Assembly (NCBI RefSeq): GCF_900079115.1
Contig: NZ_LT549890.1
Coordinates: 330,001 to 362,000, forward strand
Source: Saccharolobus solfataricus
Lineage (GTDB): Archaea; Thermoproteota; Thermoprotei_A; Sulfolobales; Sulfolobaceae
Direction of reading: 5' to 3'
DNA length: 32,000 nt
In this document: piece after piece, positions 3,136 to 31,979 of the stretch
How the letters are laid out: each line of letters starts with the position of its first letter
How positions within the stretch are numbered: the stretch's first letter is position 1
The notes under the pieces: model-generated
Seen by the model: only the letters and a program-made list of their open reading frames with translations
Database searches by the model: none
What the model was told of the DNA's origin: nothing
Translations under genes and position numbers: made by a program

Positions 3136-4365
3136 TCAAATAAGATACTTCTTTAAAATTTTCAAGACAGAATTGGCAACATTATCCCAATTCGAATGCA
3201 GCTTTAAGAATTCCATTAACTTATCTCCATTCATGATCTCTTCAATTTCTTTCTCACTCATTTTGTAGAACTTTAAAGCGTTTTCAGCCATACTTTCCTT
3301 ATCGAATTCATTAACAATCCTAACACACTCTAATCCTCCATAAACACTCTTAATTGCGGGAATGTCATAGGCAACAACCGGCGTACCTAGGGCTAGAGAT
3401 TCTAGAGCAACTAATGAGAAACCATCAACATGAGATGGATAAATTAGAACCTTAGCCTTAGAAACAATATCTGCTAACTCCTCCCTCTTAACAAAGCCCT
3501 TATAGTCAACCCTCAAATCGTATTTTCTGACCTTAGACCAAAACCTCCTCTCGTTGTATTTATCGAAAAATTTGCCCATTAGAATTAACCTTACCTTATT
3601 ACCACCCCTCTTTTCCATAATGCGCAAAATGTCTGGCAACTCATGAAAACCCTTATCTTGATTTAACCTACTCCAGAATACAACGTAATCCTCTTTCCCC
3701 CTATTCCTAAACTTCAGAAGAGAAGGATTAAAAGCATTTCCGGGTTTAATAACCTCACCACCTAAACCAGACTCAAGTAAAGGAGCTTCACTGACACCAG
3801 CTAAAAAAGTAGGTTTTTTCACTTTTTTAAACAACCTCTTATACAAATATTTTATATACTCGTTGTATAGAAACCTAGTGTGAAAACCTTTTCCAGTATA
3901 TGGATTTACACCATAAAATTTGACTAATCTCCTAAAGTATCTAAGGGAGTTATTATAAAAGGGGGGTTCATGGAAAGTTACGCCATATTTAGTATCCCTA
4001 GCCAGATAGAAAATATCAAGGGATGTGTGGTCTGGCTCGTACAAGATATCGGCGTCAACTTTAAAACCCTTGGAAAACTCCCTAGCGATCTTATCGGCAA
4101 ATAAAAACCTCTTAAGCCTTCCAATTCTCCTCTTCTCCTCCAATATCTCATAAAATTCATCAGCAACCTTTATGCCTTGGCTCTCTAATTCCTTAGCCTT
4201 CTTCTCTACGTTCTCCTTATCCCATGAAAGGACTGGGCTAGAAGGGTAATATACAATTTTGAAATGCTCCTTAAGCCTAATCGTAACCTCATAAGCATGA
4301 ACGGCTCCACCACCAGCAAAATACGGTGAGAGGAATTTATCGTAGACAACTCCCAGTGTAGTCAT
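3136..4365 (-). CDS. GT4-family (GT-B fold) glycosyltransferase
   Basis: 409 aa. The C-terminal retaining-GT signature is PSHVDGFSLVALESLALGTPVVAYD (EX7E-like), and the N-terminus is the typical GGGAVHAYE. Confidence 0.8.
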   Translation of the reverse strand: MTTLGVVYDKFLSPYFAGGGAVHAYEVTIRLKEHFKIVYYPSSPVLSWDKENVEKKAKELESQGIKVADEFYEILEEKRRIGRLKRFLFADKIAREFSKGFKVDADILYEPDHTSLDIFYLARDTKYGVTFHEPPFYNNSLRYFRRLVKFYGVNPYTGKGFHTRFLYNEYIKYLYKRLFKKVKKPTFLAGVSEAPLLESGLGGEVIKPGNAFNPSLLKFRNRGKEDYVVFWSRLNQDKGFHELPDILRIMEKRGGNKVRLILMGKFFDKYNERRFWSKVRKYDLRVDYKGFVKREELADIVSKAKVLIYPSHVDGFSLVALESLALGTPVVAYDIPAIKSVYGGLECVRIVNEFDKESMAENALKFYKMSEKEIEEIMNGDKLMEFLKLHSNWDNVANSVLKILKKYLI

Positions 4366-4701: not shown

Positions 4702-7700
4702 ATGAATAAAACCCTCGGTCTAATCCTAACCTCTGTATTCCTACTATCCACTTTAGGCATAATAACTGGATTTGTAATACCAACACAAGCTGCCAACTCT
4801 AATGATGCGGCAATATACACAATACCTAGTGTTACTAGTGTAAGTAATACTTCTAATATAGTCATTAACCTATTCTTTAACGCTACTTCAAACTCTACAG
4901 TAGGCGCACAAGCATCTGCATTTAATTATGGTTTAGCAATTAACTATACTTTAGATGCCATAACGTTTACCGTGGTACTTCCAAGTGGTACGTCCTATCC
5001 ACTAATAAAATTAAATGCTAAAAATTTTGCAAATTATGGATATTATGATCTAGCTCACAATTCAATAGTTTTACTATTAAATACTACTGCTTCATCCACA
5101 GCCAAAGAATTGGCATATAGTTATGAGCAAAGTATTGGAGTAACTCCTTCAGCAAGTTATAAAATTTATAATTATACTAATAAAACCGTAAATGTTAATC
5201 AATACATGAATGAGCTACCTCTATCAATGTTGATATATATGGCAACTAATGGAAAATATAACAATTTAGCATCATTACCAGTAGGTACTAAACTAGAATT
5301 CACTTACGCTGGTGTCACTTATATCATAGCAGTGTCCCCAACCGTGAAATTAGTAGGTGAGTTATTAAACCCATTGTATACAGCAAATTCAAAGATGTTA
5401 CCTGGCACTAACTACGCAGTTGGAAGAAGCAACATAACCGTAGCAGTTTACGATAACTTGATTACAACTACCACATCACCATTTAACTTTACCTTAACCT
5501 ATTCCTCATTAGCGCCAGCCCTAATATACTGGTTTGTAATAGCTAATACAACATATACTAATAATGGTGCTTCTACACCAACAGCTAGCTTCCAGGCTCC
5601 ACCGTTTAAACAATACTTCCCATCTAATAGTACCATATTATATTCCGCAGCACCAACTAAAAGTTCGATCCTAATGTTTAATGGACAAATGAACGTCACT
5701 GCACATGAAAACGTAACGCTAACCTTACAAACCGGTACTAACATATACACATCTCCAAACTTCAACGTGACTCCACCAGGTAATTATACTTTCTCTGGTA
5801 AGTTAGGTGTTGGATTCAATGGCTTCATCTATCAAAACGGTAGTGCAACATTAACTGCAACTATATTTAATGGTACAATTAATTTCTTCTTTAGCAGTAC
5901 TGGCCAGAAAGCCGCATTTACTTTCTTCCTAGTTCCGATAGTTCCAATAAACTTAGGCGATAATAATGGTGCAACAGTGATCTATAATGGGGTATCTCTC
6001 AACACTGGCTTCCCACAAGTAGTAGTAATGTTTAACATAACTGGTAATTTCACTAAATCTGGAAGTAATTATCTATTATACGGATCAGTATATGAGGCTG
6101 AGTTAAAACCGTTAGGCTCTACTCAATTACAAAAATTAGCTGGTGCAACTGATAGTACACAGTTCGTGGGTAACTTAATTTCATCCGCTTCATCACCTTT
6201 AGTATCTTACTTCAACTACGGTGAATCTACAACAACAATAACAGGAACATCATTATCCTTCACAGTGCTAATGCCATTAAAGTTCATTGTTGAGAGATTA
6301 GGCTACATCTATCTAGTAACCTTCCATATATGGGGTCCGTCAGCTACTGTAACTGTAACTGGTGTTGACTACCACGGTACCCAAATTGCACTAGGTTCCT
6401 TTAGAGCATATGTAGCACTTCCAAGCTTCTATACACTGCCAAAAACTCCATTGGTTGGCTTAACTTGCGACAACATGTATACACTAGCACAAGTAAGTGA
6501 TGCTGGCTCAGTCCTAGAGACCTCCACGGCGAATTCCAATGCTAATAATGCAACTGTTATTGGACCCTATGACTTAATGTCCAATGCTGGTCTACACGTG
6601 GCAATTTACAATGGTTCTAAACTAGTGAAGAGTGGGAATTTAGGCCTATTACCCAATGCGACAACAGCTCCTATAACCACTACTATAACGCTAAATGGAC
6701 AAACAGTTGCATTAACTTACTCTTCTGCTCCAACAGCGATATACCCAGTTGATTTCAAGTTTGAGCCAGGATTCAGTTACAGTGTTACAACTAACGTGAT
6801 ATATAATACTTCAATTCCAACCTATGTTGTGACTGTATATATGCCATTGAAATACATACTACAAACTAAAATCGTAATGTGGTATGTGAGTCCTGACTAT
6901 GCTGCTTACTTCTATTATTCAAGCACTGGACAGTATCAAACTAGTAACGTAACCTTAACGTTTGCAAATGTTACTCCAGAATTAGTAATGCCACAAGTAT
7001 TCCCGGTTGGCAAACTATACATGCCCTTCGGAATTAATGATCCGTATTACGTGTTCTACAGCAGTATAAGTATAGGTCCGCAGAGTGGAGTAATTGAAGC
7101 TGTTGAGAATGGATTTAACGTAGGTAACATTACTTCAATTACTGTAGAACTAAATGGTATGAACGAGTCAATAGTATTATCACCACTAAATGTTAGTAAA
7201 TTATTAATATCAAGTAACTTAGGTGAAGTATCTCAATGCAGCCCATTATTTACAACTACACTATTCAACATATCCGCGTTAGCTTCACTATTAGGTTTAC
7301 CAAACGCAGCTGCTCTAAATGGAAGCTATTTATATGTAACCTATCACGATATAATCAGTGGAGCTTATGTGACAAACAGGACCTTACTGGTGGTTGGTCA
7401 ATTCTACGTGATGCCACCAACTACTCCAGGTTCGGTTGAATGGATATTAACTGCAAAGTACATTAATGCTACAACGGGTATTCCAGTTGAGATAAGCTAT
7501 GCTGTAGTGCAACAGCCAAGTGCTAAGGTAGTTGATATAAACGCAGCTAATGCAAGCATTACACAAATACAAGTAACTGGTGTGAAGATTGTTAGCAAGT
7601 ACGCTACTGTGACAGTTATGTATAATCCAAGTAATGCAAGCACAATCGTATACATGAACGGTATGTTTGTAGCTTCATATGGTGGTAATCTAATATCTTC

Positions 7701-8397
7701 GCTATCAGAGACGTCAACATTTGGAGTATATTACGGAGCAGTAGTTAACTTATATGTAGCGACTGGTACATTAAGTAGTCCTAACGGAACAATGTATGTA
7801 GTATTAGGATCTCATAAAGTTGCAGTAGGTACTGCTAATCTATACACTTACGCTGGATACCACTTCGGTCCATACACAGCCCTACCACTAGTATCTAATG
7901 TAACATTTACAGTACAAGACCCAGTAACTCATGCGACACTCACTGGTCAAACCACCTTAGGTGCATTTAACAACACTCCAATTAGGTTAGCTCCATTAGG
8001 TGTATCAATACCTCAAACTGCCCAATATAAAGTGTTCTACTACTATAGCACACCTTTAGTATTAAGCCCAACAAGTCAGTACATAGTGTTGTCTGTGACA
8101 AGTGTTATATCCTATCCATATCCATTCTACATAGAAACTGTATCGTTCTTAGGTTATAACGTAACTACTGGAACTCCAGTGCCTGGCACTCCAGCATTCC
8201 AGACAGTATATTCGCCATCCTTAGGTCCTGGTGTAGTATTACAAGTACCTGTTCAGTCATATCAGTTCATAAGCTTATCGACTCCAAGTGAGCCTCATAC
8301 AGTAGTAATGTTTGCAGTGCCGTTTGCAGGCGGTCCAGCAATATCTCTATACCCGACATTCTTAGTATACGCTAATGTGACGGCGATTTCAAGTTAA
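4702..8397 (+). CDS. slaA: large S-layer lattice protein SlaA
   Basis: 1231 aa. It has an N-terminal signal peptide (MNKTLGLILTSVFLLSTLGIITGFVIPTQA/ANS). It is very rich in Thr/Ser/Asn/Val/Tyr, with well over 30 N-x-S/T sequons by eye and almost no charged residues. It is followed directly by slaB. The sequence matches my memory of Sulfolobus SlaA. Confidence 0.9.
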   Translation: MNKTLGLILTSVFLLSTLGIITGFVIPTQAANSNDAAIYTIPSVTSVSNTSNIVINLFFNATSNSTVGAQASAFNYGLAINYTLDAITFTVVLPSGTSYPLIKLNAKNFANYGYYDLAHNSIVLLLNTTASSTAKELAYSYEQSIGVTPSASYKIYNYTNKTVNVNQYMNELPLSMLIYMATNGKYNNLASLPVGTKLEFTYAGVTYIIAVSPTVKLVGELLNPLYTANSKMLPGTNYAVGRSNITVAVYDNLITTTTSPFNFTLTYSSLAPALIYWFVIANTTYTNNGASTPTASFQAPPFKQYFPSNSTILYSAAPTKSSILMFNGQMNVTAHENVTLTLQTGTNIYTSPNFNVTPPGNYTFSGKLGVGFNGFIYQNGSATLTATIFNGTINFFFSSTGQKAAFTFFLVPIVPINLGDNNGATVIYNGVSLNTGFPQVVVMFNITGNFTKSGSNYLLYGSVYEAELKPLGSTQLQKLAGATDSTQFVGNLISSASSPLVSYFNYGESTTTITGTSLSFTVLMPLKFIVERLGYIYLVTFHIWGPSATVTVTGVDYHGTQIALGSFRAYVALPSFYTLPKTPLVGLTCDNMYTLAQVSDAGSVLETSTANSNANNATVIGPYDLMSNAGLHVAIYNGSKLVKSGNLGLLPNATTAPITTTITLNGQTVALTYSSAPTAIYPVDFKFEPGFSYSVTTNVIYNTSIPTYVVTVYMPLKYILQTKIVMWYVSPDYAAYFYYSSTGQYQTSNVTLTFANVTPELVMPQVFPVGKLYMPFGINDPYYVFYSSISIGPQSGVIEAVENGFNVGNITSITVELNGMNESIVLSPLNVSKLLISSNLGEVSQCSPLFTTTLFNISALASLLGLPNAAALNGSYLYVTYHDIISGAYVTNRTLLVVGQFYVMPPTTPGSVEWILTAKYINATTGIPVEISYAVVQQPSAKVVDINAANASITQIQVTGVKIVSKYATVTVMYNPSNASTIVYMNGMFVASYGGNLISSLSETSTFGVYYGAVVNLYVATGTLSSPNGTMYVVLGSHKVAVGTANLYTYAGYHFGPYTALPLVSNVTFTVQDPVTHATLTGQTTLGAFNNTPIRLAPLGVSIPQTAQYKVFYYYSTPLVLSPTSQYIVLSVTSVISYPYPFYIETVSFLGYNVTTGTPVPGTPAFQTVYSPSLGPGVVLQVPVQSYQFISLSTPSEPHTVVMFAVPFAGGPAISLYPTFLVYANVTAISS

Positions 8398-8438: not shown

Positions 8439-9632
8439 TTGGTTGTGAAAAAAACATTCGTTTTATCTACCTTGATATTAATTTCAGTTGTAGCGTTAGT
8501 GAGTACAGCAGTTTATACATCTGGTAACGTAACTTTTTACAGTCCTAGTGTAAATAATCAAATTTACTATGTTGGAAAATCAGTAACAATTGATGCTGTT
8601 GTTCCTCAACAATTTGCTGGTCAAGGAGCTGTTATAAACTTATTCTTCCCTAATTCAACGCTAGCTGCTAGTATTCCTACTACCGTTAATGCTACTGGTG
8701 GAATTTATGTGCCCAATGCTTATACATTTCCTCACGTAATAGGAATTTGGCAAATTACTGTTGAAGTTACTGGTGGTGTGGCTGTAGGTACAATTGACGT
8801 TAATGTTACAACTCCCGCAGTAGCTCCAATCATATTAACTCTACAAAACTTAGCTATGTATGAGAATACTTACCCACAGTTTATAGAGTTTGCTAATGGT
8901 ATCATAACTTCAGTGGTTATGCAAAACGGTACTGTGAACATAATGGGTTACGTCTATAATAGTACAGTAGGTCCATTATCTGGTGCTACTGTTTCCTTAA
9001 CTCTTAATATACCCACTGTTGGGACTAAAACGTTATCTACGACAACTGCTTCAAACGGGTCGTTCATGTTAAGTTTCCAAGTTCCTCAATTATCAACCAC
9101 TTTAACGCTAATATCTTCCTACTTGATCAGTGGTAGCTTAACGGTATCTTATGGAGTCCATACTGTAACTTATAACGTATTTATAACCGCAATTCCGAAC
9201 TATCTTAGTGTAATTAATGCGTTAAATAATGAAGTTAGTACGTTAAGGAGTGAGATCTCATCGTTAAATAGCACAATCGCTAGCTTAAATAAGAGTTTAG
9301 CTAATGCAAATACTCAGATATCCAATTTACAGAGTGAGATAACCACATTGAATAGCGAAATAGGAAAGTTAAACAGTACTGTAGGATCGCTAAGTACTCA
9401 ACTTAGCTCACTGTCTTCACAGTATAATACTTTGAGCAGTCAAGTTACTGCACTAAATGGTAAAATAAGCAATCTAAGTACAAGTCTCAGTACTTTAAAC
9501 GGAGAGGTTGCTAGCTTAAGGAGTACTGTTAGTAGTTTAACTACAATAGCCTATGGCGGAATTATAGCTGGCATAATAGGTCTAATTGTTGCAATAGTAG
9601 CCATAGTACTAGTAATGAGGAGAATAAGTTAA
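8439..9632 (+). CDS. slaB: small S-layer anchor protein SlaB
   Basis: 397 aa. It has an N-terminal signal/TM segment and a Thr/Val-rich beta domain. A long Ser/Leu/Asn coiled coil (aa 256-367, nt ~9204..9539; repeats such as LNSxIxSL) follows. A single C-terminal TM anchor (IAYGGIIAGIIGLIVAIVAIVLV) ends in MRRIS. Confidence 0.9.
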   Translation: MVVKKTFVLSTLILISVVALVSTAVYTSGNVTFYSPSVNNQIYYVGKSVTIDAVVPQQFAGQGAVINLFFPNSTLAASIPTTVNATGGIYVPNAYTFPHVIGIWQITVEVTGGVAVGTIDVNVTTPAVAPIILTLQNLAMYENTYPQFIEFANGIITSVVMQNGTVNIMGYVYNSTVGPLSGATVSLTLNIPTVGTKTLSTTTASNGSFMLSFQVPQLSTTLTLISSYLISGSLTVSYGVHTVTYNVFITAIPNYLSVINALNNEVSTLRSEISSLNSTIASLNKSLANANTQISNLQSEITTLNSEIGKLNSTVGSLSTQLSSLSSQYNTLSSQVTALNGKISNLSTSLSTLNGEVASLRSTVSSLTTIAYGGIIAGIIGLIVAIVAIVLVMRRIS

Positions 9633-9891: not shown

Positions 9892-9973
<82 letters not shown>

Positions 9974-9984
9974 ATGTGATTGAG

Positions 9985-12168
9985 ATGTTTGAAAATTACT
10001 TCATGGATGCGGTAAAGGGTTATTATAGGCATTTAGCGATAATTGAATCTCAAGATCCTTTAGAGAAGATTAATTCATTAATTGATGACTATTTAAAGGT
10101 TAACAAGAAGCCAAGGGTTATATACGGCTTTCATCCTTGGCTCGACAATTCAAAAGATAGAATGAAAGAGCTGAAAAAGAGATTTGAAAACTTTCTCGAC
10201 ATAGATTACTCCAATTCAGAGAAATATCTTGGGCAAAGCGCGGATTTGGTAATATTAGACGCAATGGATGATTTTAGGCCTAACTACATTGCTAGATTCG
10301 TTGACATGACTAAGGGAGGAGGTATAGCGATAATCTACAGCGATAACATCCTAGAGGGTAAGTTGTATAAGAAGTCTTTGACCAGGTATGGTGTTGTTAA
10401 AGATCTGTTTGAAGCTAGGTTTATTGAACTGGCTAAGAGATATAGAGGGATCATTTTCTTTCAAGGAAATGATAGGATAACTTTTACACCGTATTCCTCA
10501 AATGAAACTCACAAACCATACAAGAAAATACCTAAAAGTCCTAAAGTTTCGATGGAGCTTCATGAGCTTTGTCTATCTTCTGACCAGAACAAGGTTCTTG
10601 AGGAATCCTTGTTCATTATGAATCTAGGGAAAAGAGTTTTAGTAATAACTGCAGCAAGGGGTAGGGGTAAGAGTGCATCCATAGGTTTGTTTTTGTCTTA
10701 TTTAATGAGTGAGGGAAATTTTGGTAGTATTATAGTAACTTCCCCAACGTACTATTCTTCACAAGAGATATTCAAATTCATAATTAGAGGGTTAGAAGCT
10801 CTAAATGTTAAGTATAAGGTAATCACATCAAGGGATGGTAAGATAATGAAGATATCTACAAGGGATTCCAGGGTAAAATGGGTTTCTCCGGACTTAGCTA
10901 AAAATGAGGAGGGTGATTTAATAGTTATAGATGAGGCAGCTGCTATGGGTATAGAGTTTTTAGACTATATCGTGAGATCTTGGGATAAGGTAATCTTGGT
11001 TACTACTATTCACGGTTATGAGGGTTCTGGGAAGGCATTTTTAAAGTACGTTGATAAACTGAAGGGTAAGGTTCTTTTGAAGAATATAAAGATGGATTAT
11101 CCTATTAGGTATGCTAAGGGTGATCCTATTGAGAAGTTCTTATTTGATGTATTCTTATTGGATGCTGAACCGCATGAAGTTGAATATAATGGTAAGTTGA
11201 AAATAGTTGAGGTTCCTCAAGAGGAATTGTTTCGAGATGATGATTTGCTTAAGAGCGTTTATGGAATATTGGTTACTGCTCATTATAGGAATTCCCCTGA
11301 TGATTTAATGCTTTTAGGCGATATGGCTTTCCAAAAGGTTATAGTAGGTTATTCATCTGAGAATCCTGTGGCAGTTTGTCAAGTTGTCTATGAGGGAGGT
11401 CTAACTGATAAGCAAATATGGGATATTTCCAATGGGTTAAAGAATGAGGGGCATTTGATTCCTCATAGGCTTATAAAGTACATGAGGGCTTTAGATTTCG
11501 GTAAGTTGAAGGGTTGGAGGATAATGAGGATTGCTGTTTCTCCGGAAAATCAAGGTAAGGGTATAGGGAGTAGAGTTATCGAAGAGGTTATTAAGATGGC
11601 GAAGGGAGTTGATTGGATTGGATCTTCATTTGTTGCAGATTACTCCGTTTTACGATTTTGGATAAAGAACGGATTTTTGCCGGTTTATTTATCCTCTATT
11701 AAGAATGAGGAACTTAATGGTTATTCGGTGATTGTGATTAAGGCTTTAAGCGAGAGAACTAAGGAGTTTGTTGTTAAACTTTCCAGTTTATTGAAGGATA
11801 AGCTATTGAGAACTTCTCATCAAGTCTATTATAATTTGAATCCTCAACTTATTGTTCTATTATTAAGGAATACTTACAGTGAAAGGATAGAGGGAGAGGT
11901 TCCAGATCTATATGTTGATAAGATTAAGGCTTATACTGAAGGTAAGGTTCCATATAATGTCATCGCTGAAGCTGCACATTTCTTAGTTACTAAACATTTT
12001 TTAGAACTTAAAGCCGATTTAAGTATAGAAGCCGAGGCTTCACTAGTAGCTAGAGTTTTACAAGGTAAAAGTTGGTATCATGCAGGTTTAATGTTAGGTT
12101 TGAGTAGTAGGGAAGTTGAAGATAATGTTAAGCAGAGTTTAGGGGTTTTGTTAGAAACTTATACTTAG
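9985..12168 (+). CDS. tmcA: TmcA/Nat10-family RNA cytidine N4-acetyltransferase (helicase-like ATPase plus GNAT)
   Basis: Walker A is [14 protein letters not shown], Walker B is [11 protein letters not shown], and the GNAT acetyl-CoA motif is [23 protein letters not shown]. The track ORF begins inside tRNA-Gly, so I set the start at the first ATG after the tRNA (9985, [10 protein letters not shown]...). Confidence 0.85.
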
Positions 12169-12798
12169 TGGACTTTCTCTCTCTGTATAGATGGTATGTA
12201 TATGTTATGGAATCACTTTACTTTGCAGTAGTTTTCCAAAGGTATGAAGAAGGGATTGTTATCTTTTATCATCTTGTAAAATAGCTAAATTGAAGATTTT
12301 TTATCATTTTCTTTTAACTAAACACTTTTTGATGCAAAATTTACTAACTAAATAGACTATAAACATGTTTTCGTTGCTGTAATACGGGACGGGAAAATGA
12401 AGAAAGAAAAGAGCAGTTTTGAAGTGGAGATACAATTACGCTAGAGAAACGATAAGTATCACACCTATTGATCGGAAACGATAAACGGTTAGGCGAAGGA
12501 AATTTACGTTGTTCTTCAATGGCGTTATTTGGTTATATGTAAATTAGAAATGGAATCGAGGGTAAGGTTAGCTGTTTTCCCTATACTTTAATTTAAATCA
12601 TTTTATGCTCTATCACGTTAGTCTCAACCATAAGGTAAGTTATAAGGCTCCTTTGAGCTTAACGGCATAAGGTTCACTTTTCTGTTTTTCTCCTCAGTTA
12701 ATTTACATAGAATTCCTTGGGAACATCACTCCCGTCGAACCGGAATTATAGAGAACTAGTAATAAGAAAAATCAATATAAAAAGGGTTAAACGCTTAG

Positions 12799-12883
12799 CG
12801 CCGGGGGCGGGATTTGAACCCGCGCAGGCTAGACACCTACTGGCTCTCAAGGCCAGCCCCTTGGACCACTCGGGCACCCCGGC
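12799..12883 (-). tRNA. tRNA-Ser (anticodon UGA), class II with long variable arm
   Basis: Read on the minus strand. Acceptor GCCGGGG/CCCCGGC. Discriminator G. Anticodon stem CTGGC/GCCAG with loop CTTGAGA. Variable arm of about 16 nt. T arm GCGGG-TTCAAAT-CCCGC. No CCA and no intron. Confidence 0.85.
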
Positions 12884-12907
12884 AAATTATAGTTTAACAC
12901 TATAGCT

Positions 12908-13468
12908 TTAATCTTTAACTATTGTTATTAAGGAATATCCTTTTTTTCTCTTTATGGATTCAATTTTAAATCTTTTACTGAATATTTTCTCTATATTTTC
13001 TTCACCCTTATATGCTATCAACTGTATGAATCCCTTTTCAACTAATCTATCATAGGCTTCGGCTTCAAGCTTCTTTAGAAAATCTACTCCTTTAGAAAGA
13101 GGAGGGTTAGAATAAATTGCGGTAAATTTAACGTCGATAGGAATGTTATCAAAGATATCTGATTTCACTATTATTGTCCTATTTTCAACCCCATTAAGTT
13201 TTGCATTTTTCTTAGCCAGCTTAATTGCAATGTAGTTGACATCTACCATGTAGACCTTAAGGTTAGGATTTTTCAATGCTAGGTAGATTCCTATGGGTCC
13301 GTAGCCACAACCAACGTCTGCTACAGTTCCGTTTTCCGCTACTTTTATGTTTTCCAAAAGTATCCTTGTTCCCAAATCTAGTTCCTTTTTTGAAAATATC
13401 CCCGGTGAGGATAGAAGGGTTAGAGGTATACCGTTAATTACTTCAAAAATTATGTACTCATGACTCAT
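12908..13468 (-). CDS. class I SAM-dependent methyltransferase (small 'MTS' RsmC/RlmG-like domain)
   Basis: 186 aa. Motif I is VADVGCGYGPIG and motif IV is YSNPPL (an NPPY-type amino-group methylase motif). Its start overlaps the cbf5 stop by 11 nt, so it is probably co-translated in the rpl14e-cbf5 operon. Confidence 0.7.
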   Translation of the reverse strand: MSHEYIIFEVINGIPLTLLSSPGIFSKKELDLGTRILLENIKVAENGTVADVGCGYGPIGIYLALKNPNLKVYMVDVNYIAIKLAKKNAKLNGVENRTIIVKSDIFDNIPIDVKFTAIYSNPPLSKGVDFLKKLEAEAYDRLVEKGFIQLIAYKGEENIEKIFSKRFKIESIKRKKGYSLITIVKD

Positions 13469-14499
13469 GTTTTTTCCATGCTTTTGGATATATATCTCTC
13501 TGCATAAAAACTCTACTTAAGTTGACTACTATTCCCTTTTTTGCGTTTTCCAATTCTTCGCTGTCCATTAGTGCGTTGCCTGTCGCTACTAATTCCCCTT
13601 TAAGCGTTAATACTGCGACTGTATCGTTCTTTTTAAAGTTCTGATAAGCTACTACTCCAGGTACTGCTAGTTGCGCACCATAAGCTAATGCGTTTACAGC
13701 TGAGTCTTCTATTACAATTTTTGGAATTTCACAAGTTGCGAATTCCATTGGTATAAGTACTCTTCTTAGTTCTGTTTCGTCTTTGCAGTTCTTGTATAAG
13801 TATATTGCTTCAGAAAGTTCGTGTAATTTCACTAGATTTGTGGATTCTGTGAAAATCCCGGATCTAGTTCTTCTTAGCTCTCTCATATGAGCTCCACAAC
13901 CGTAAATTATTCCTATATCATGACATAATTTTCTCATGTACGTCCCGGAGTCACAGTTTACTCTAAGTAATACTAACTTCTTGTCCATGTCTAGAATTTC
14001 TATATCATATATTCTTCTAATTCTTAGTCTCCTTTTGACTGATGATCTAACTGGTGGTCGTTGGTATATTTCTCCTTTAAATGAACTTATTATCTTTGCC
14101 AATTCCTCTTTATTGTATTCACAGTGAACTTGCATTACACATACGTACTCTTTTCCTCCTTTACTTATATAGTTCATTATTTTAGTTGCGTTCTCTATTC
14201 CTATTGGTAACACACCGGTAACTTTAGGATTACCCCGCCCAATGAATGGGCTCTAGGGTCCCCCCATGTCCTGCTTTGGTAACGTTTAACATCTTTTTAA
14301 CCCAATACGCTACTTCATGGCTCGTGGGCCCTGGAGGTTTATCAAGGTTTATTATTGAGTTTTTGATATGTATCTCTATTGGTCTTTTTTCTGGATAATA
14401 TCCGTATTTATCTGATGTTTCACTATCCTTCCTTATCTTCCATTCATTTTTATATCCACAAAAATTATCTATTTTGTAAATAAAATCATTTAAAATCAT
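13458..14499 (-). CDS. cbf5: H/ACA RNP pseudouridine synthase Cbf5 (TruB family plus PUA). Two exons: 14499..14253 and 14230..13458. The spliced product is 339 aa
   Basis: The upstream ORF ends ...KAGHGGTL-EPIHWAG*. The downstream frame reads PKVTGVLPIGIENATK... Removing 22 nt restores GHGGTLDPKVTGVLPIG, which carries the TruB/Cbf5 catalytic Asp. The C-terminal PUA-like region is AVNALAYGAQLAVPGV. Confidence 0.85.
14231..14252 (-). other. 22-nt bulge-helix-bulge intron in the cbf5 pre-mRNA (a substrate of the tRNA-splicing endonuclease type)
   Basis: The minus-strand RNA is GGGA-CCCU-[AGA]-GCCCA-UUCAU-UGGGC-GGGG-[UAA]-UCCU. The outer helix is GGGA/UCCU and the central 4-bp helix is CCCU/GGGG. 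There are two 3-nt bulges and an inner hairpin. Cutting after the second nucleotide of each bulge gives CUA G|AU CCU, which is in frame. Confidence 0.8.
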
Positions 14500-14504
14500 C
14501 TAAA

Positions 14505-14795
14505 TCACAATGTTGGCATCCTAATCTTTATTTTCTCCTTCATGTACTCTGTTAAGTTGGACTCCTCTAATTTCTTCTTTACTTCCTCATCCGAAGCTCC
14601 TTTCTGTATATCAATTTTCTTATCAGTTGGTTCTAAGTGAAGAATGTTAACCCTTCTTCTCTTAACGCCAGTTATGTCTTTTGGTCCGGTGACTAATACG
14701 AAATTGTCATCTATTATGTCTACTATTACGCATTTGCTTCCAGCTTCTCTTCCTTTTACTTTTACACAAATTCTTCCAACTTCTATTGCGGGCAT
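14505..14795 (-). CDS. rpl14e: 50S ribosomal protein L14e (eL14), KOW motif
   Basis: 96 aa, starting [39 protein letters not shown]... Confidence 0.9.
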
Positions 14796-14835
14796 TTTAA
14801 TCTCACAAAAACTTTTAAGAGGCTTAAATTTAAGA

Positions 14836-17577
14836 TTAGTGCCAGTATTTTCTTGTTCTTATAAATCTTTTCTCTTCATCTATTAAGGCCATGTAAAACT
14901 CATTTTCTCCTTCATTTAATTTACTCAATACTTTGCCTAAATTACTTGGTCCAACTCCATTAGTTGCTAATGCTATTAGGCTGTACTTACCGTAATCTGG
15001 GAAGAAGGAGGCAACTCTCTTCAAGTCTTCTAACTGTCTTCTCTCCTTACTTGTTAATTTCTCACCTTTTATTGCTTTTCTCACTATCTTCACGGAATCG
15101 CTATCATCTGGATTAGTTGCAGTTAAGAAAATTGAGGAACATTTGGGGCATTTGCTAGGTGAGTTAATTATAGAGTATTTTCCCTCCCACCCACATGAGA
15201 GACAGATTAATTTCAGCTCCTTGTTTTCTAATCTCTTTTTGAAAATTTCAATCATTAATGGTTTTTCTTCTTTATCGAACGAGGTGTAGTTAAGGATTTT
15301 ATCTAGAAATTGTTTAGCTAAGGGGGACGCTTCGTAAACCTCTACTATTTTCCAGTTGTAATTCTTGAGTTCCTTTATTATTTCTACATCATAATTTTTG
15401 ACTAATAATTCCTTAACTGCTTCTTCTCCAATTATTGTATCTCCATAAGCCTTTATAATGGATGAGGTAAGCGTTATTTCCTTTTCTGGGTCTATCATCC
15501 CAAACCTCTTTATCTCAACCAATAATTTCCACTTGAATTGCGGACTTTCTTTAATTCCCTTCTTTAATATTTCAATTATTCTGTCTATAGGAGTAGAATT
15601 TAGCGTAGAGACAATTTTTTCCATATCATTTTTAGTTATTGGCAGTACAGAAGATATTGCGATGTGATATGGATCAGCCCTATAAGTCGTTTTGGTCTGT
15701 TTTTCTACGTCTAACATAACTGAAATTATGGCACCAAGCGTGTTGTTTCCTCTTGAGCCGAATGGTGAATGCACTATTATTAAATTATTCTTTACTATTT
15801 CAACAAGGATTAGATCTGGTCTTAGTTCTGGATATCCTCTTTTCATGTATTCTCTAACTACTTCAGCTAAGCTATTATCTTCAGTTTCCCTTTTTTCCTT
15901 CTCCACTGCGTAAATATACTCGTAGACTTTCCTAGCTATCTCTTTCTCAACTGGAATTGATTCTCCGAACCAACTAGGCAATATTCCGTTTTTTAGCTCA
16001 GCCCTTTCCACAAATATTCTGTCGTTCTCTATGGATACGACTTTCCATAGTCTACTTCCTAAAATGAATACACTATCTTCATCTAGTGTGACTACGAAAT
16101 CTTCGTCTAAGGTACCTATTTTCATGTTGGTAGCATGGTCAATTACTATATAACTTCTAATGGAATCTGGTATCATATTAGTAGTGTAATAATATTTCCA
16201 AATTCTTCTACTTGGAAATAAGCTTCCGTCTTCTCTTCTTTTAACTATTTTTGCGCTCTCTAATAATTCTATAACGTTTTCGAACATCTCATCGGTGAAG
16301 TTCTCGAAATAAAATGAATTGCGAAGAATCTCCATCATTTCTTTAGGGTTTTTATAACCTTCTAAAACCATTCCCGCTATTTCATGTGCTGCAACGTCAA
16401 GTGGGTTTTCTTCAAACAGGGGTTTTTCCAAATAACCAGAATATAATGCTTCAATTATTGCTCTGCACTCTAAAATATCGAAAAGGTCCTCTGAGGGTAT
16501 AACGTAACCTATAGACGTTCTACCTATTTTATGTCCACTTCTTCCGACTCTTTGAATTAACCTAATTACTTGTCTCGGTGACATGTATTGGACAACTAGA
16601 TTAATTCTACCGATATCAATACCCAATTCTAAGCTCGAGGTTGCGACTATAGCGTCTATATTACCGTTTTTGAAGTCGTTTTCAGTTTTTATTCTAATTT
16701 CTCTTGATAATGAGCCGTGATGAGAAGCTATTTTTAAGGAATAGTTACTCATGAGTTGGTTTGCTATGAATTCGCTAGTTTCCCTAGTATTTGTAAATAT
16801 TATAATAGGTTTGTTGTTTTTTATAATTTCGTTAAGTTTCTCAAGTCTCGCAATTGTATCTGGTCTTAATCCCAACTTTACTGCTAAATCCGCATCTTTC
16901 TTTTCAACCTTAGGGAGTATTAAATCCACTTTTATATCCTTTATTGCGTTGATATTCGCTATTTCGACCTCTCCCTCTCTATCTAAGTACCTTTTTGCTA
17001 TTTCAACATCACCAATAGTAGCTGAAATTCCTATTAATTGAATTTTATTTCTTGTTGCTATTTTTTTGATCCTTTGGATTAGTACAGAGAGTTCTATTCC
17101 TCTTTTCTCATCTAACATTTCTTGTAATTCATCTATTATTATCCATTTCAGATTGGTAAAGTACTTCCTAAAAGTATCGTTTAGCACTAAGTAAAGTAAC
17201 GTTTCTGGCGTTACTAATAATACGTCAGGAGGGTTATCCAAAATTTCCTTCCTTTCTTTCTGAGAGGAATCTCCGTGTCTTACGTTAACACTAATATTAA
17301 AGGCTTCACCTAGCCTTCTTAACCTTAACTCAAGGTCTCTATTTAGCGCTCTTAAGGGAGTTATATAGAGTGTTGAGATTTTTTCAGGTTTATCTTTAAA
17401 GATAGTATAAAAAATTGGTAATATCGCTGCCTCAGTTTTGCCATACCCCGTTGGTGCTATGATTAAAACATTCTTTCCAGATAGTACTTTTGGTATTGCT
17501 ATTTTTTGGATTGGCGTTAAATCTTCATAGCCAAGTTTCTTCAGTCTTACCAAGAATTCATTGGTTACATTTATCAT
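14836..17577 (-). CDS. Lhr-type superfamily-2 ATP-dependent helicase with a C-terminal DEAD/H-associated region and zinc ribbon
   Basis: 913 aa. Motif I is [11 protein letters not shown] and motif II is IIDELQEM (Q where DExH helicases have H). Other motifs: [18 protein letters not shown], and motif [11 protein letters not shown] late CxxC...CxxC is present (CLSCGWEG...CPKCSS). Confidence 0.85.
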
Positions 17578-19654: not shown

Positions 19655-20404
19655 ATGTTTAAGATTGTTTACCCTAATGCAAAAGACTTTTTCTCTTTTA
19701 TAAATTCCATTACGAACGTTACTGATTCCATTATTCTAAATTTCACTGAAGATGGAATATTTTCGAGACATTTGACTGAAGATAAAGTGCTAATGGCGAT
19801 TATGAGAATACCTAAAGATGTTTTAAGCGAATATAGTATTGATAGCCCTACTTCAGTTAAATTGGATGTCTCTTCAGTAAAGAAGATTCTTTCAAAAGCC
19901 AGCTCAAAGAAAGCTACGATCGAGTTGACAGAGACTGATAGTGGATTAAAGATTATAATAAGAGATGAGAAGAGTGGGGCGAAAAGTACAATTTATATTA
20001 AAGCAGAGAAAGGTCAAGTTGAACAACTAACTGAACCGAAAGTTAATTTGGCCGTGAATTTCACTACAGATGAAAGTGTACTTAATGTAATAGCAGCTGA
20101 CGTAACTTTGGTTGGAGAAGAGATGAGGATTTCAACAGAGGAGGATAAGATAAAGATAGAGGCTGGTGAGGAGGGGAAAAGATATGTCGCATTTCTTATG
20201 AAGGATAAACCCCTAAAGGAACTTTCTATAGATACATCGGCATCATCTTCTTATAGCGCGGAAATGTTTAAGGATGCTGTAAAAGGTCTAAGAGGTTTTT
20301 CGGCCCCAACAATGGTAAGCTTTGGAGAAAATCTCCCTATGAAAATTGACGTAGAAGCAGTAAGTGGGGGTCATATGATCTTTTGGATAGCGCCAAGGTT
20401 ATAA
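19655..20404 (+). CDS. PCNA1: DNA sliding clamp subunit PCNA1
   Basis: 249 aa, from MFKIVYPNAKDFFSFINSITNVTDSIILNF to ...GGHMIFWIAPRL. It has the PCNA two-domain fold signature and is recognised as the PCNA1 paralog of the Sulfolobus heterotrimer. Confidence 0.9.
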   Translation: MFKIVYPNAKDFFSFINSITNVTDSIILNFTEDGIFSRHLTEDKVLMAIMRIPKDVLSEYSIDSPTSVKLDVSSVKKILSKASSKKATIELTETDSGLKIIIRDEKSGAKSTIYIKAEKGQVEQLTEPKVNLAVNFTTDESVLNVIAADVTLVGEEMRISTEEDKIKIEAGEEGKRYVAFLMKDKPLKELSIDTSASSSYSAEMFKDAVKGLRGFSAPTMVSFGENLPMKIDVEAVSGGHMIFWIAPRL

Positions 20405-30330: not shown

Positions 30331-31578
30331 TTGGCATGGCCTAAAGTTCAACCAGAAGTTAATATAGGTGTAGTTGGTCATGTAGATCATGGTAAGACTA
30401 CACTAGTTCAAGCAATAACGGGAATTTGGACATCAAAACATTCCGAAGAATTAAAAAGAGGTATGACAATAAAACTGGGTTACGCAGAGACTAATATAGG
30501 TGTTTGTGAAAGTTGTAAAAAACCTGAGGCATATGTAACTGAACCCTCATGTAAATCTTGTGGATCAGATGATGAGCCCAAGTTTCTGAGACGAATTTCC
30601 TTTATTGATGCCCCGGGCCATGAAGTTCTAATGGCTACAATGTTATCTGGAGCTGCATTAATGGATGGCGCAATTCTAGTCGTTGCTGCAAATGAACCTT
30701 TTCCGCAACCTCAGACTAGAGAACATTTCGTAGCATTAGGTATAATAGGAGTGAAAAACCTAATTATAGTTCAAAATAAGGTAGACGTAGTCTCCAAAGA
30801 GGAAGCGTTATCGCAGTATAGGCAAATAAAGCAGTTTACGAAGGGAACTTGGGCTGAAAATGTACCTATAATCCCAGTAAGTGCACTTCATAAGATTAAT
30901 ATAGATTCTCTAATCGAAGGTATAGAAGAGTATATAAAAACTCCTTACAGGGATCTCTCACAAAAACCTGTTATGCTTGTGATAAGAAGTTTTGACGTTA
31001 ATAAGCCCGGTACCCAATTCAATGAGTTGAAGGGTGGTGTAATAGGTGGCAGTATTATACAAGGTTTGTTTAAAGTTGACCAAGAAATAAAAGTATTACC
31101 GGGCTTAAGAGTGGAAAAACAAGGTAAAGTATCTTATGAACCTATTTTCACAAAGATTTCGTCCATAAGGTTTGGAGATGAGGAATTTAAAGAGGCTAAA
31201 CCAGGAGGTTTAGTTGCAATAGGTACATATTTAGATCCCTCATTGACTAAAGCTGATAATTTGCTTGGCAGTATTATTACCTTAGCTGATGCTGAAGTTC
31301 CAGTTTTATGGAACATTAGAATAAAGTATAATCTCCTAGAACGTGTAGTTGGAGCTAAGGAAATGTTAAAGGTAGATCCCATAAGAGCTAAGGAAACTTT
31401 AATGTTGTCTGTAGGTTCATCGACGACTTTGGGTATCGTTACCTCTGTAAAGAAGGATGAGATTGAAGTGGAGTTAAGGAGACCTGTGGCAGTATGGTCT
31501 AATAATATTAGAACTGTCATAAGTAGGCAAATAGCTGGTAGGTGGAGAATGATAGGATGGGGTTTAGTAGAGATCTAA
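30331..31578 (+). CDS. eif2g: translation initiation factor aIF2 gamma subunit
   Basis: 415 aa, [31 protein letters not shown]. It has a zinc knuckle (CESC...CKSCG), DAPGHE and NKVD. The start is TTG at 30331, with an AGGTGA Shine-Dalgarno element about 10 nt upstream. Confidence 0.95.
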
Positions 31579-31979
31579 AAGTACTAGTTGATACTAATAT
31601 TTTATTGTACGTGTATGATGGTTTAGATCCATTTAATAAGGTATTAGAATTTCTAGATTATAAACCGTCTTTTTTTATTCATTCTACAGTCTTAAGAGAG
31701 CTAGATATTTTATTTGAGAAGAACAAAAAAGGATTTATTATATCATCTAGAATTAAGATAGCCAGAAAATATTTGGAAGTATATAAAAATTTATGGAATT
31801 TAATAAATGATTATGATGATTTACCTACAGATGAAGCATTAATAAGGACCGCTCTTAAGCATAATATGTTTATATTTACTAATGATAAGGAATTAAAAAA
31901 TGATGCAATTAAAAAGGGTATAGGAGTTTTATTTCTTCAGAATAGGAGTAAAATTATAAAATCCTTATATCCTATCTAA
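31557..31979 (+). CDS. PIN-domain protein (Fcf1/COG1412-like putative rRNA-processing endonuclease)
   Basis: It carries PIN acidic motifs ([10 protein letters not shown] ... FTNDKELK). The start is either ATG 31557 or GTG 31542, and both lie inside the last codons of aIF2-gamma. Confidence 0.65.

Follow-up and report, generated by a model that had tools for sequence, protein, structure and literature searches.

A 22-nt bulge-helix-bulge intron, already described, divides the catalytic aspartate codon of cbf5 in a Saccharolobus solfataricus genome

The first case of pre-mRNA splicing in Archaea was reported in 2002 for the cbf5 genes of Aeropyrum pernix, S. solfataricus, and S. tokodaii (Yokobori et al., 2009; PMC2738675). 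Cleavage of the cbf5 transcript depends on a fold that resembles a bulge-helix-bulge (BHB) and is recognized by the splicing endonuclease EndA, which cuts between the second and third residues of the bulge (PMC2738675). The intron of S. solfataricus is listed as 22 bp in length, with the corresponding cDNA deposited as AB245525 (Additional file 1 of Yokobori et al., 2009; PMC2738675). Here we analyzed a window of 32,000 nucleotides from S. solfataricus (contig NZ_LT549890.1, positions 330,001 to 362,000) in which cbf5, the gene for the H/ACA-guided RNA pseudouridine synthase, lies on the minus strand and is broken into two open reading frames (ORFs). We conclude that the gene is almost certainly split within its Asp83 codon by a 22-nt archaeal BHB intron, and that this is the intron already published.

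Several other studies have dealt with the same element. Circular-RNA sequencing in S. solfataricus P2 recovered a "short intron" from Cbf5 (SSO0393), with circular junctions 1 nt from the excision site (PMC3326292). A 2023 review treats cbf5 of Sulfolobus as the classic instance of mRNA splicing by the tRNA endonuclease, and it names only two such archaeal genes, cbf5 and HVO_1309 (PMC10485636). In work on the H/ACA ribonucleoprotein of S. islandicus, the two cbf5 exons were joined by overlap PCR because the intron is present. The intron of the S. solfataricus P2 cbf5 pre-mRNA was reportedly described by Watanabe et al. in 2002 (FEBS Lett 510:27) and by Yoshinari et al. in 2006. The original prediction for the window, made from its sequence, had referred to a report by Watanabe and co-workers of an intron in crenarchaeal cbf5; that report did appear in 2002 and includes S. 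solfataricus.

The ORF list of the window contains an 89-aa ORF (14499..14230) and a 251-aa ORF (14213..13458) that are the N- and C-terminal parts of Cbf5, as had been proposed without mention of the strand. The 89-aa ORF terminates in GHGGTLEPIHWAG (also given as KAGHGGTLEPIHWAG), followed by its stop codon. The 251-aa ORF is listed from an internal GTG by convention of the ORF tool, and its frame is open further upstream, where it reads PKVTGVLPIG. This downstream frame is shifted by +1 from that of the upstream ORF, with the stop codon at the point of the shift. Read on the minus strand, the region of the junction is GGACAUGGGGGGACCCUAGAGCCCAUUCAUUGGGCGGGGUAAUCCUAAAGUUACCGGUGUG, and the RNA of the 22-nt intron within it is AGCCCAUUCAUUGGGCGGGGUA. 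The gene is divided as follows:

13458..14499, minus strand: cbf5.
14253..14499, minus strand: cbf5 exon 1, 247 nt (82 codons and the G of Asp83), encoding DKCLD and the first part of TruB_N, as far as GHGGTL.
14231..14252, minus strand: the 22-nt BHB intron, whose deletion restores the frame and the aspartate; 10 run-derived contigs lack the same 22 nt, and the published length is 22 bp.
13458..14230, minus strand: cbf5 exon 2, 773 nt with the stop codon, encoding, from the AU of Asp83, the rest of TruB_N, TruB_C_2, and PUA.

When 14231..14252 was deleted, CUA-G was joined to AU-CCU and the result was a 1020-nt coding sequence for a 339-aa protein that contains GHGGTLDPKVTGVLPIG and carries GHGGTLDPKVTG across the junction, reproducing the product that had been predicted. 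The Asp83 codon is itself split by the intron, with the G in exon 1 and AU in exon 2, and the mature junction CUA-GAU-CCU (Leu-Asp-Pro) restores both the residue and the frame. If the 22-nt deletion is slid by -4 to +4 nt, the aspartate is regained only in the proposed register and at a shift of -1, and all the remaining registers give glutamate or asparagine. The -1 register is identical in sequence to the proposed one because an A is repeated at both borders, so that the sequence alone places the junction only to within one A.

The spliced product has the properties of an intact Cbf5. Its DKCLD, TruB_N, TruB_C_2, and PUA domains all score above their Pfam gathering scores, and, for the spliced product only, the Cbf5 equivalog model NF003280 (NCBIfam) gives 484 bits against a cut-off of 242 and TIGR00425 gives 445 bits against a cut-off of 238. 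Alignment with Cbf5 of Pyrococcus furiosus (PDB 3lwo; E = 3e-108) is ungapped over the junction, KAGHGGTLDPKV, with the query segment kaghggtldpkvtgvlp opposite KAGHGGTLDPKVSGVLP. The GGTLDPxxxG motif is present, and Asp83, which is created by the junction, aligns with the Asp of GGTLDPKVSG in the P. furiosus protein. It is well established that the Asp of this motif is the catalytic residue in the TruB/Cbf5 family (PMC2738675). In sequence, the 89-aa and 251-aa ORFs are identical to the S. solfataricus entries AAK40721.1 and AAK40720.1, which are filed separately as "tRNA pseudouridine synthase A" and "B"; the neighboring eL14 is AAK40722.1.

Around the intron, the RNA of 14262..14226 contains a strict hBHBh' motif, in which two 3-nt bulges on opposite strands are separated by a central helix (H) of exactly 4 bp and flanked by an outer helix (h) of 4 bp (GGGA/UCCU, with one G-U pair) and an inner helix (h') of 5 bp (GCCCA/UGGGC). 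Its elements, all on the minus strand, are:

14226..14262, minus strand: complete hBHBh' motif, a splicing endonuclease substrate; -16.2 kcal/mol, an outlier relative to the window and to shuffles.
14259..14262, minus strand: outer helix h, 5' strand GGGA (exon 1), pairing with 14226..14229.
14255..14258, minus strand: central helix H, 5' strand CCCU (exon 1, Thr-Leu codons), pairing with 14233..14236.
14252..14254, minus strand: bulge 1, AGA, with the 5' splice site between 14253 and 14252.
14237..14251, minus strand: inner hairpin h', GCCCA-UUCAU-UGGGC (intron), present in the free fold.
14233..14236, minus strand: central helix H, 3' strand GGGG (intron), pairing with 14255..14258.
14230..14232, minus strand: bulge 2, UAA, with the 3' splice site between 14231 and 14230; this is also the stop codon of the unspliced upstream ORF.
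14226..14229, minus strand: outer helix h, 3' strand UCCU (exon 2, last part of the Asp codon with the Pro codon), pairing with 14259..14262.

The unconstrained minimum-free-energy fold of a 71-nt segment gives exactly these pairs, and a cut between nucleotides 2 and 3 of both bulges yields exactly the junction that restores the aspartate. The helices and the AGA and UAA bulges are all present as they had been listed, and the proposed cleavage after the second bulge nucleotide, which gives the in-frame junction, matches the published rule. The motif had also been called "textbook", a description that holds for S. solfataricus and fails for most of its relatives, in which the outer helix is relaxed.

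A scan of one genome per archaeal species yielded 80 cbf5 loci, the best match being a Saccharolobus metagenome-assembled genome (MAG; 76% identity). The gene is interrupted at the same codon, between GTL and D, in 25 of the 80, by introns that are 16–37 nt long and variable in sequence; in some relatives the length is a multiple of three. Both exons are intact and conserved from S. solfataricus out to distant orders. From 26 cbf5 loci with an intron at this codon, we took the BHB core in the register set by the splice rule (4+4+3+4 / 4+4+3+4 nt, after trimming of the loop) and counted its pairs. The central helix is 100% paired in the 21 distinct sequences, and two of its pairs show compensatory changes: the exon changes are synonymous (CCCU to CUCU or CCUU) and are matched by changes in the intron (GGGG to GGAG or GAGG). 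The inner helix is 95% paired, and all four counted pairs change on both sides. The outer helix is 76% paired and carries no compensatory changes, two of its four pairs departing by unpaired cells only.

Bulge 1 is invariant (AGA) because it is coding. Bulge 2 varies among the relatives (UAA, AGA, AUA, AAA, or UUA), so that the stop codon found there, rightly identified in the original prediction as that of the upstream ORF, is a coincidence of the S. solfataricus lineage. The outer-helix pair that adjoins bulge 2 is A-C or another mismatch in about half of the intron-bearing relatives (alignment A1, columns 3–4 and 27–28). The strict motif is kept in Saccharolobus and Metallosphaera, and we refer to motifs with an outer-helix mismatch as relaxed. 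The weaker outer helix of the relatives explains why the cbf5 motifs have been termed "BHB-like", "relaxed", or "unconventional" in the literature (PMC2738675, PMC10485636).

In the protein collection, the exact 339-aa spliced protein comes only from assemblies of public sequencing runs. Ten contigs from ten different, independent SRA runs (L081–L090, Logan; SRR4096251, SRR4096252, SRR1588125, SRR1588088, SRR29706757, SRR29706754, SRR12455258, SRR12455257, SRR11589511, and SRR11589509) match the window over 2.1–7.0 kb with at most one mismatch, and in all ten the sole gap is exactly the 22 nt at 14231..14252; the unspliced junction occurs in none of them. These contigs correspond to window positions 10458..17499. 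The intron-less form was confined to contigs of at most 25 kb. The split ORFs occur in 12 assemblies of more than 1 Mb and in dozens of other contigs, and the intron is retained in all of the complete genomes. The most economical interpretation is that the intron-less contigs are probably RNA-seq assemblies, in which mature mRNA has been stored as genomic contigs. Several short contigs (including L086, L088, and L089) stop inside or just past the downstream tRNA-Ser (12798..12883), at differing points, as is expected of contigs assembled from transcripts. A text search for papers citing these SRA runs returned no relevant match. In L088, 29 nt of unrelated sequence follow GCGCGGGTTC in the T arm of the tRNA-Ser, and this switch resembles a chimeric assembly or a break in coverage where the tRNA is conserved or modified.

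Certain points count against a BHB intron and have to be set beside this evidence. The pairing pattern alone is common: a strict motif search of both strands (h and h' of 4 bp or more, H of 4 bp, G-U pairs allowed, intron of up to about 120 nt) found 93 motifs in the window, compared with 70–99 in dinucleotide shuffles. As such patterns are as frequent in shuffled sequence, the motif by itself proves nothing. For its composition, the 71-nt segment has an ordinary total folding energy (z = -0.55 relative to shuffles). The trimmed core alignment was built in the register of the splice rule and so leans towards the structure, and the assignment of the intron-less runs to RNA rather than DNA libraries is one that we infer.

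As the z score of the whole segment is uninformative, we scored the energy of the motif itself instead. At -16.2 kcal/mol, the cbf5 motif is separated by about 7 kcal/mol from the next best motif in the window (-8.9 kcal/mol), and in none of 12 shuffled windows does the best motif (-4.3 to -9.4 kcal/mol) reach this stability. With about 93 motifs among about 6.4 million combinations of position and length, the chance that any of them hits the one junction by which the catalytic motif is repaired is about 1e-5. The observed covariation score was reached by none of 500 column shuffles, and every slid register scored lower. The anatomy of the sequence, the restored protein, the covariation, and the intron-less contigs were established in this analysis, and no result contradicts the BHB intron. 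A full-length Cbf5 whose alignment to solved Cbf5 structures is free of gaps, the BHB geometry, ten contigs with the predicted junction, and a 22-bp intron in the literature together bear out the central claim of the original prediction.

Next in stability among the strict BHB-like motifs of the window is one at 31915..31965 (plus strand, -8.9 kcal/mol), which lies inside an uninterrupted 145-aa ORF (31542..31979) for which we found no family match. As its energy is within the range of the shuffles and the ORF is uninterrupted, this motif most likely arose by chance. Apart from cbf5, nothing in the window looks spliced. At gathering thresholds, Rfam detected only four tRNAs in the window and has no family for the cbf5 intron element. 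ARAGORN found no intron-bearing tRNA in the window, which therefore offers no internal positive control.

We considered three ways in which the split gene might be explained without splicing, and rejected them on the strength of the deletion contigs, the conserved BHB and exons, and the split Asp codon. The first is a programmed +1 ribosomal frameshift, in which the 22 nt are read through and a shift near the UAA gives a single polypeptide. The downstream frame is indeed +1 and the shift point coincides with a stop codon, so that the locus superficially resembles known +1 sites. However, the product (GTLEPIHWAG-NPKV) would have seven extra residues and an asparagine in place of the catalytic aspartate. 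The inserted residues are not conserved, since only the pairing of the intron is kept as its length and sequence vary, and some relatives have introns whose length would require no frameshift at all. Contigs with the exact 22-nt deletion exist, and a cDNA lacking the 22 nt has already been published for S. solfataricus. We consider this explanation extremely improbable.

The second possibility, that cbf5 is a nonfunctional pseudogene or that a sequencing or assembly error inserted 22 nt, accounts for two adjacent partial ORFs that are filed as separate proteins. Such an accident is hardly conceivable as the source of an identical split in 12 assemblies larger than 1 Mb and dozens of other contigs, or of an insertion that always falls at the same codon, with both exons intact out to distant orders and the BHB maintained by compensatory changes. 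Cbf5 is, moreover, the only catalytic subunit of H/ACA ribonucleoproteins. On these grounds, the original rejection of both a frameshift and pseudogenization was sound. The third possibility, that translation yields the 89-aa and 251-aa polypeptides as separate products that come together as an active synthase, can draw on the recognizable domains in each ORF (DKCLD in the first, TruB_N and PUA in the second), but it has next to no likelihood, as neither product contains the catalytic aspartate because its codon is itself split, the 251-aa ORF would need an internal GTG start inside the conserved TGVLPIG motif, and the tail of the 89-aa ORF is nonconserved, intron-encoded sequence.

The genes surrounding the intron-containing cbf5 in the window are:

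4702..8397 and 8439..9632, plus strand: probable S-layer gene pair; the C terminus of the second matches SlaB, below the model cut-off.
9937..12168, plus strand: TmcA-like tRNA acetyltransferase.
12798..12883, minus strand: tRNA-Ser(UGA).
12908..13468, minus strand: RsmC/HemK-like class I methyltransferase, whose start overlaps the cbf5 stop by 11 nt (13458..13468).
14505..14795, minus strand: ribosomal protein eL14, ending 5 nt upstream of the cbf5 start and present on the same run-derived contigs.
14836..17577, minus strand: Lhr-type helicase.
19655..20404, plus strand: PCNA.
30331..31578, plus strand: aIF2-gamma.

The TmcA-like gene, on the opposite strand, and the tRNA-Ser gene, on the same strand, adjoin the cbf5 group to form a compact cluster for RNA modification and translation. 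As the eL14, cbf5, and methyltransferase genes abut or overlap and share run-derived contigs, all three are probably transcribed together, with the methyltransferase gene downstream of cbf5. In the pre-mRNA, the exon sequences GGGACCCUAG and AUCCU, together with the GGGG and 5-bp hairpin of the intron, would fold into the hBHBh' structure. EndA, which in Sulfolobales is the heterotetrameric (alpha-beta)2 form, would cut at 14253/14252 and 14231/14230, between nucleotides 2 and 3 of each 3-nt bulge. An RNA ligase would then join the exons and probably circularize the 22-nt intron; we infer the identity of this ligase, which we take to be RtcB. The spliced mRNA is predicted to yield the active 339-aa Cbf5, and the unspliced mRNA would give at most an 89-aa fragment ended by the UAA of bulge 2. 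For the cDNA evidence and the cleavage by EndA in S. solfataricus cbf5, we rely on the published reports.

The same GTL/D-codon intron with a BHB core (16–23 nt) was also seen in MAGs from outside Desulfurococcales and Sulfolobales, at about position 3200 of each locus. These comprise Thermofilaceae MAGs (L021, L065, L069, and L071–L074), a Bathyarchaeota (Bathyarchaeia) genome with a 16-nt intron (L068), and Ca. Pelearchaeum (L079 and L080; Caldarchaeales, phylum Nitrososphaerota). An intron at this codon was absent from Thermofilum and Infirmifilum (L024 and L026) and from most Pyrodictiaceae loci. In 2009 the gain of the intron was assigned to the ancestor shared by Desulfurococcales and Sulfolobales, with Thermofilum listed as intron-free (PMC2738675). 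A text search found no paper describing a wider distribution, and these occurrences may go beyond the literature. They would mean either that the intron long predates the ancestor to which its gain was assigned in 2009 or that horizontal transfer has carried it to the same site. One locus labeled Pyrodictiaceae (L056) carries a 37-nt cbf5 intron, at about position 3200, and the Pyrodictiaceae/Pyrodictium loci L003–L011 and L013 have none, as in the published loss from this family; either the label of the MAG is loose or the loss is not family-wide.

Because the catalytic Asp codon would be formed only after cleavage by EndA and ligation, and the unspliced mRNA would stop at the UAA, synthesis of Cbf5 would be tied to the tRNA-splicing machinery. 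A role as a "negative regulator" was proposed earlier by Watanabe et al., who did not demonstrate it (PMC2738675). Any regulatory role is conjectural, and we regard it as unlikely, though conceivable, that the intron is a checkpoint that couples Cbf5 synthesis to the capacity for tRNA splicing rather than a passive relic. A related reading, drawn more from the data, is the greater age or horizontal spread of the intron that its occurrence in the MAGs would imply.

Archaea very rarely use the tRNA endonuclease to splice protein-coding RNA, and BHB-spliced mRNAs routinely break automatic gene calling; at this locus, cbf5 has been deposited as two proteins. For the window, the practical value of the analysis is a corrected annotation, in which a single 339-aa Cbf5 is encoded on the minus strand by joining 14499..14253 to 14230..13458.

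Compared with the published intron of S. solfataricus P2 cbf5, the element in the window is from the same species and gene, has the same 22-bp length and the same position in the catalytic Asp codon, and follows the same cleavage rule. There is no detectable difference between them, and the window intron is the already published object. The run-derived contigs offer evidence similar in kind to the deposited cDNA AB245525. As it was characterized experimentally in the same species more than 20 years ago, its finding here opens no new question. Besides cbf5, no archaeal mRNA except HVO_1309 of Haloferax volcanii (Schwarz et al., 2020, as summarized in PMC10485636) has been reported to undergo BHB cleavage by the splicing endonuclease; HVO_1309 differs from cbf5 in being another gene, in another phylum, with an endonuclease of the alpha2 type. 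The cbf5 intron resembles the BHB introns of archaeal tRNA and rRNA (the hBHBh' of Marck and Grosjean) in its bulges, its 4-bp helix, its h and h' helices, and its cleavage between bulge positions 2 and 3, and it is short, within the 11–175 nt range of tRNA introns. Unlike those introns, it is hosted by an mRNA that has no tRNA body, and half of its motif consists of the Gly-Thr-Leu-Asp-Pro codons, so that two constraints, one from the protein and one from the RNA structure, act on this half.

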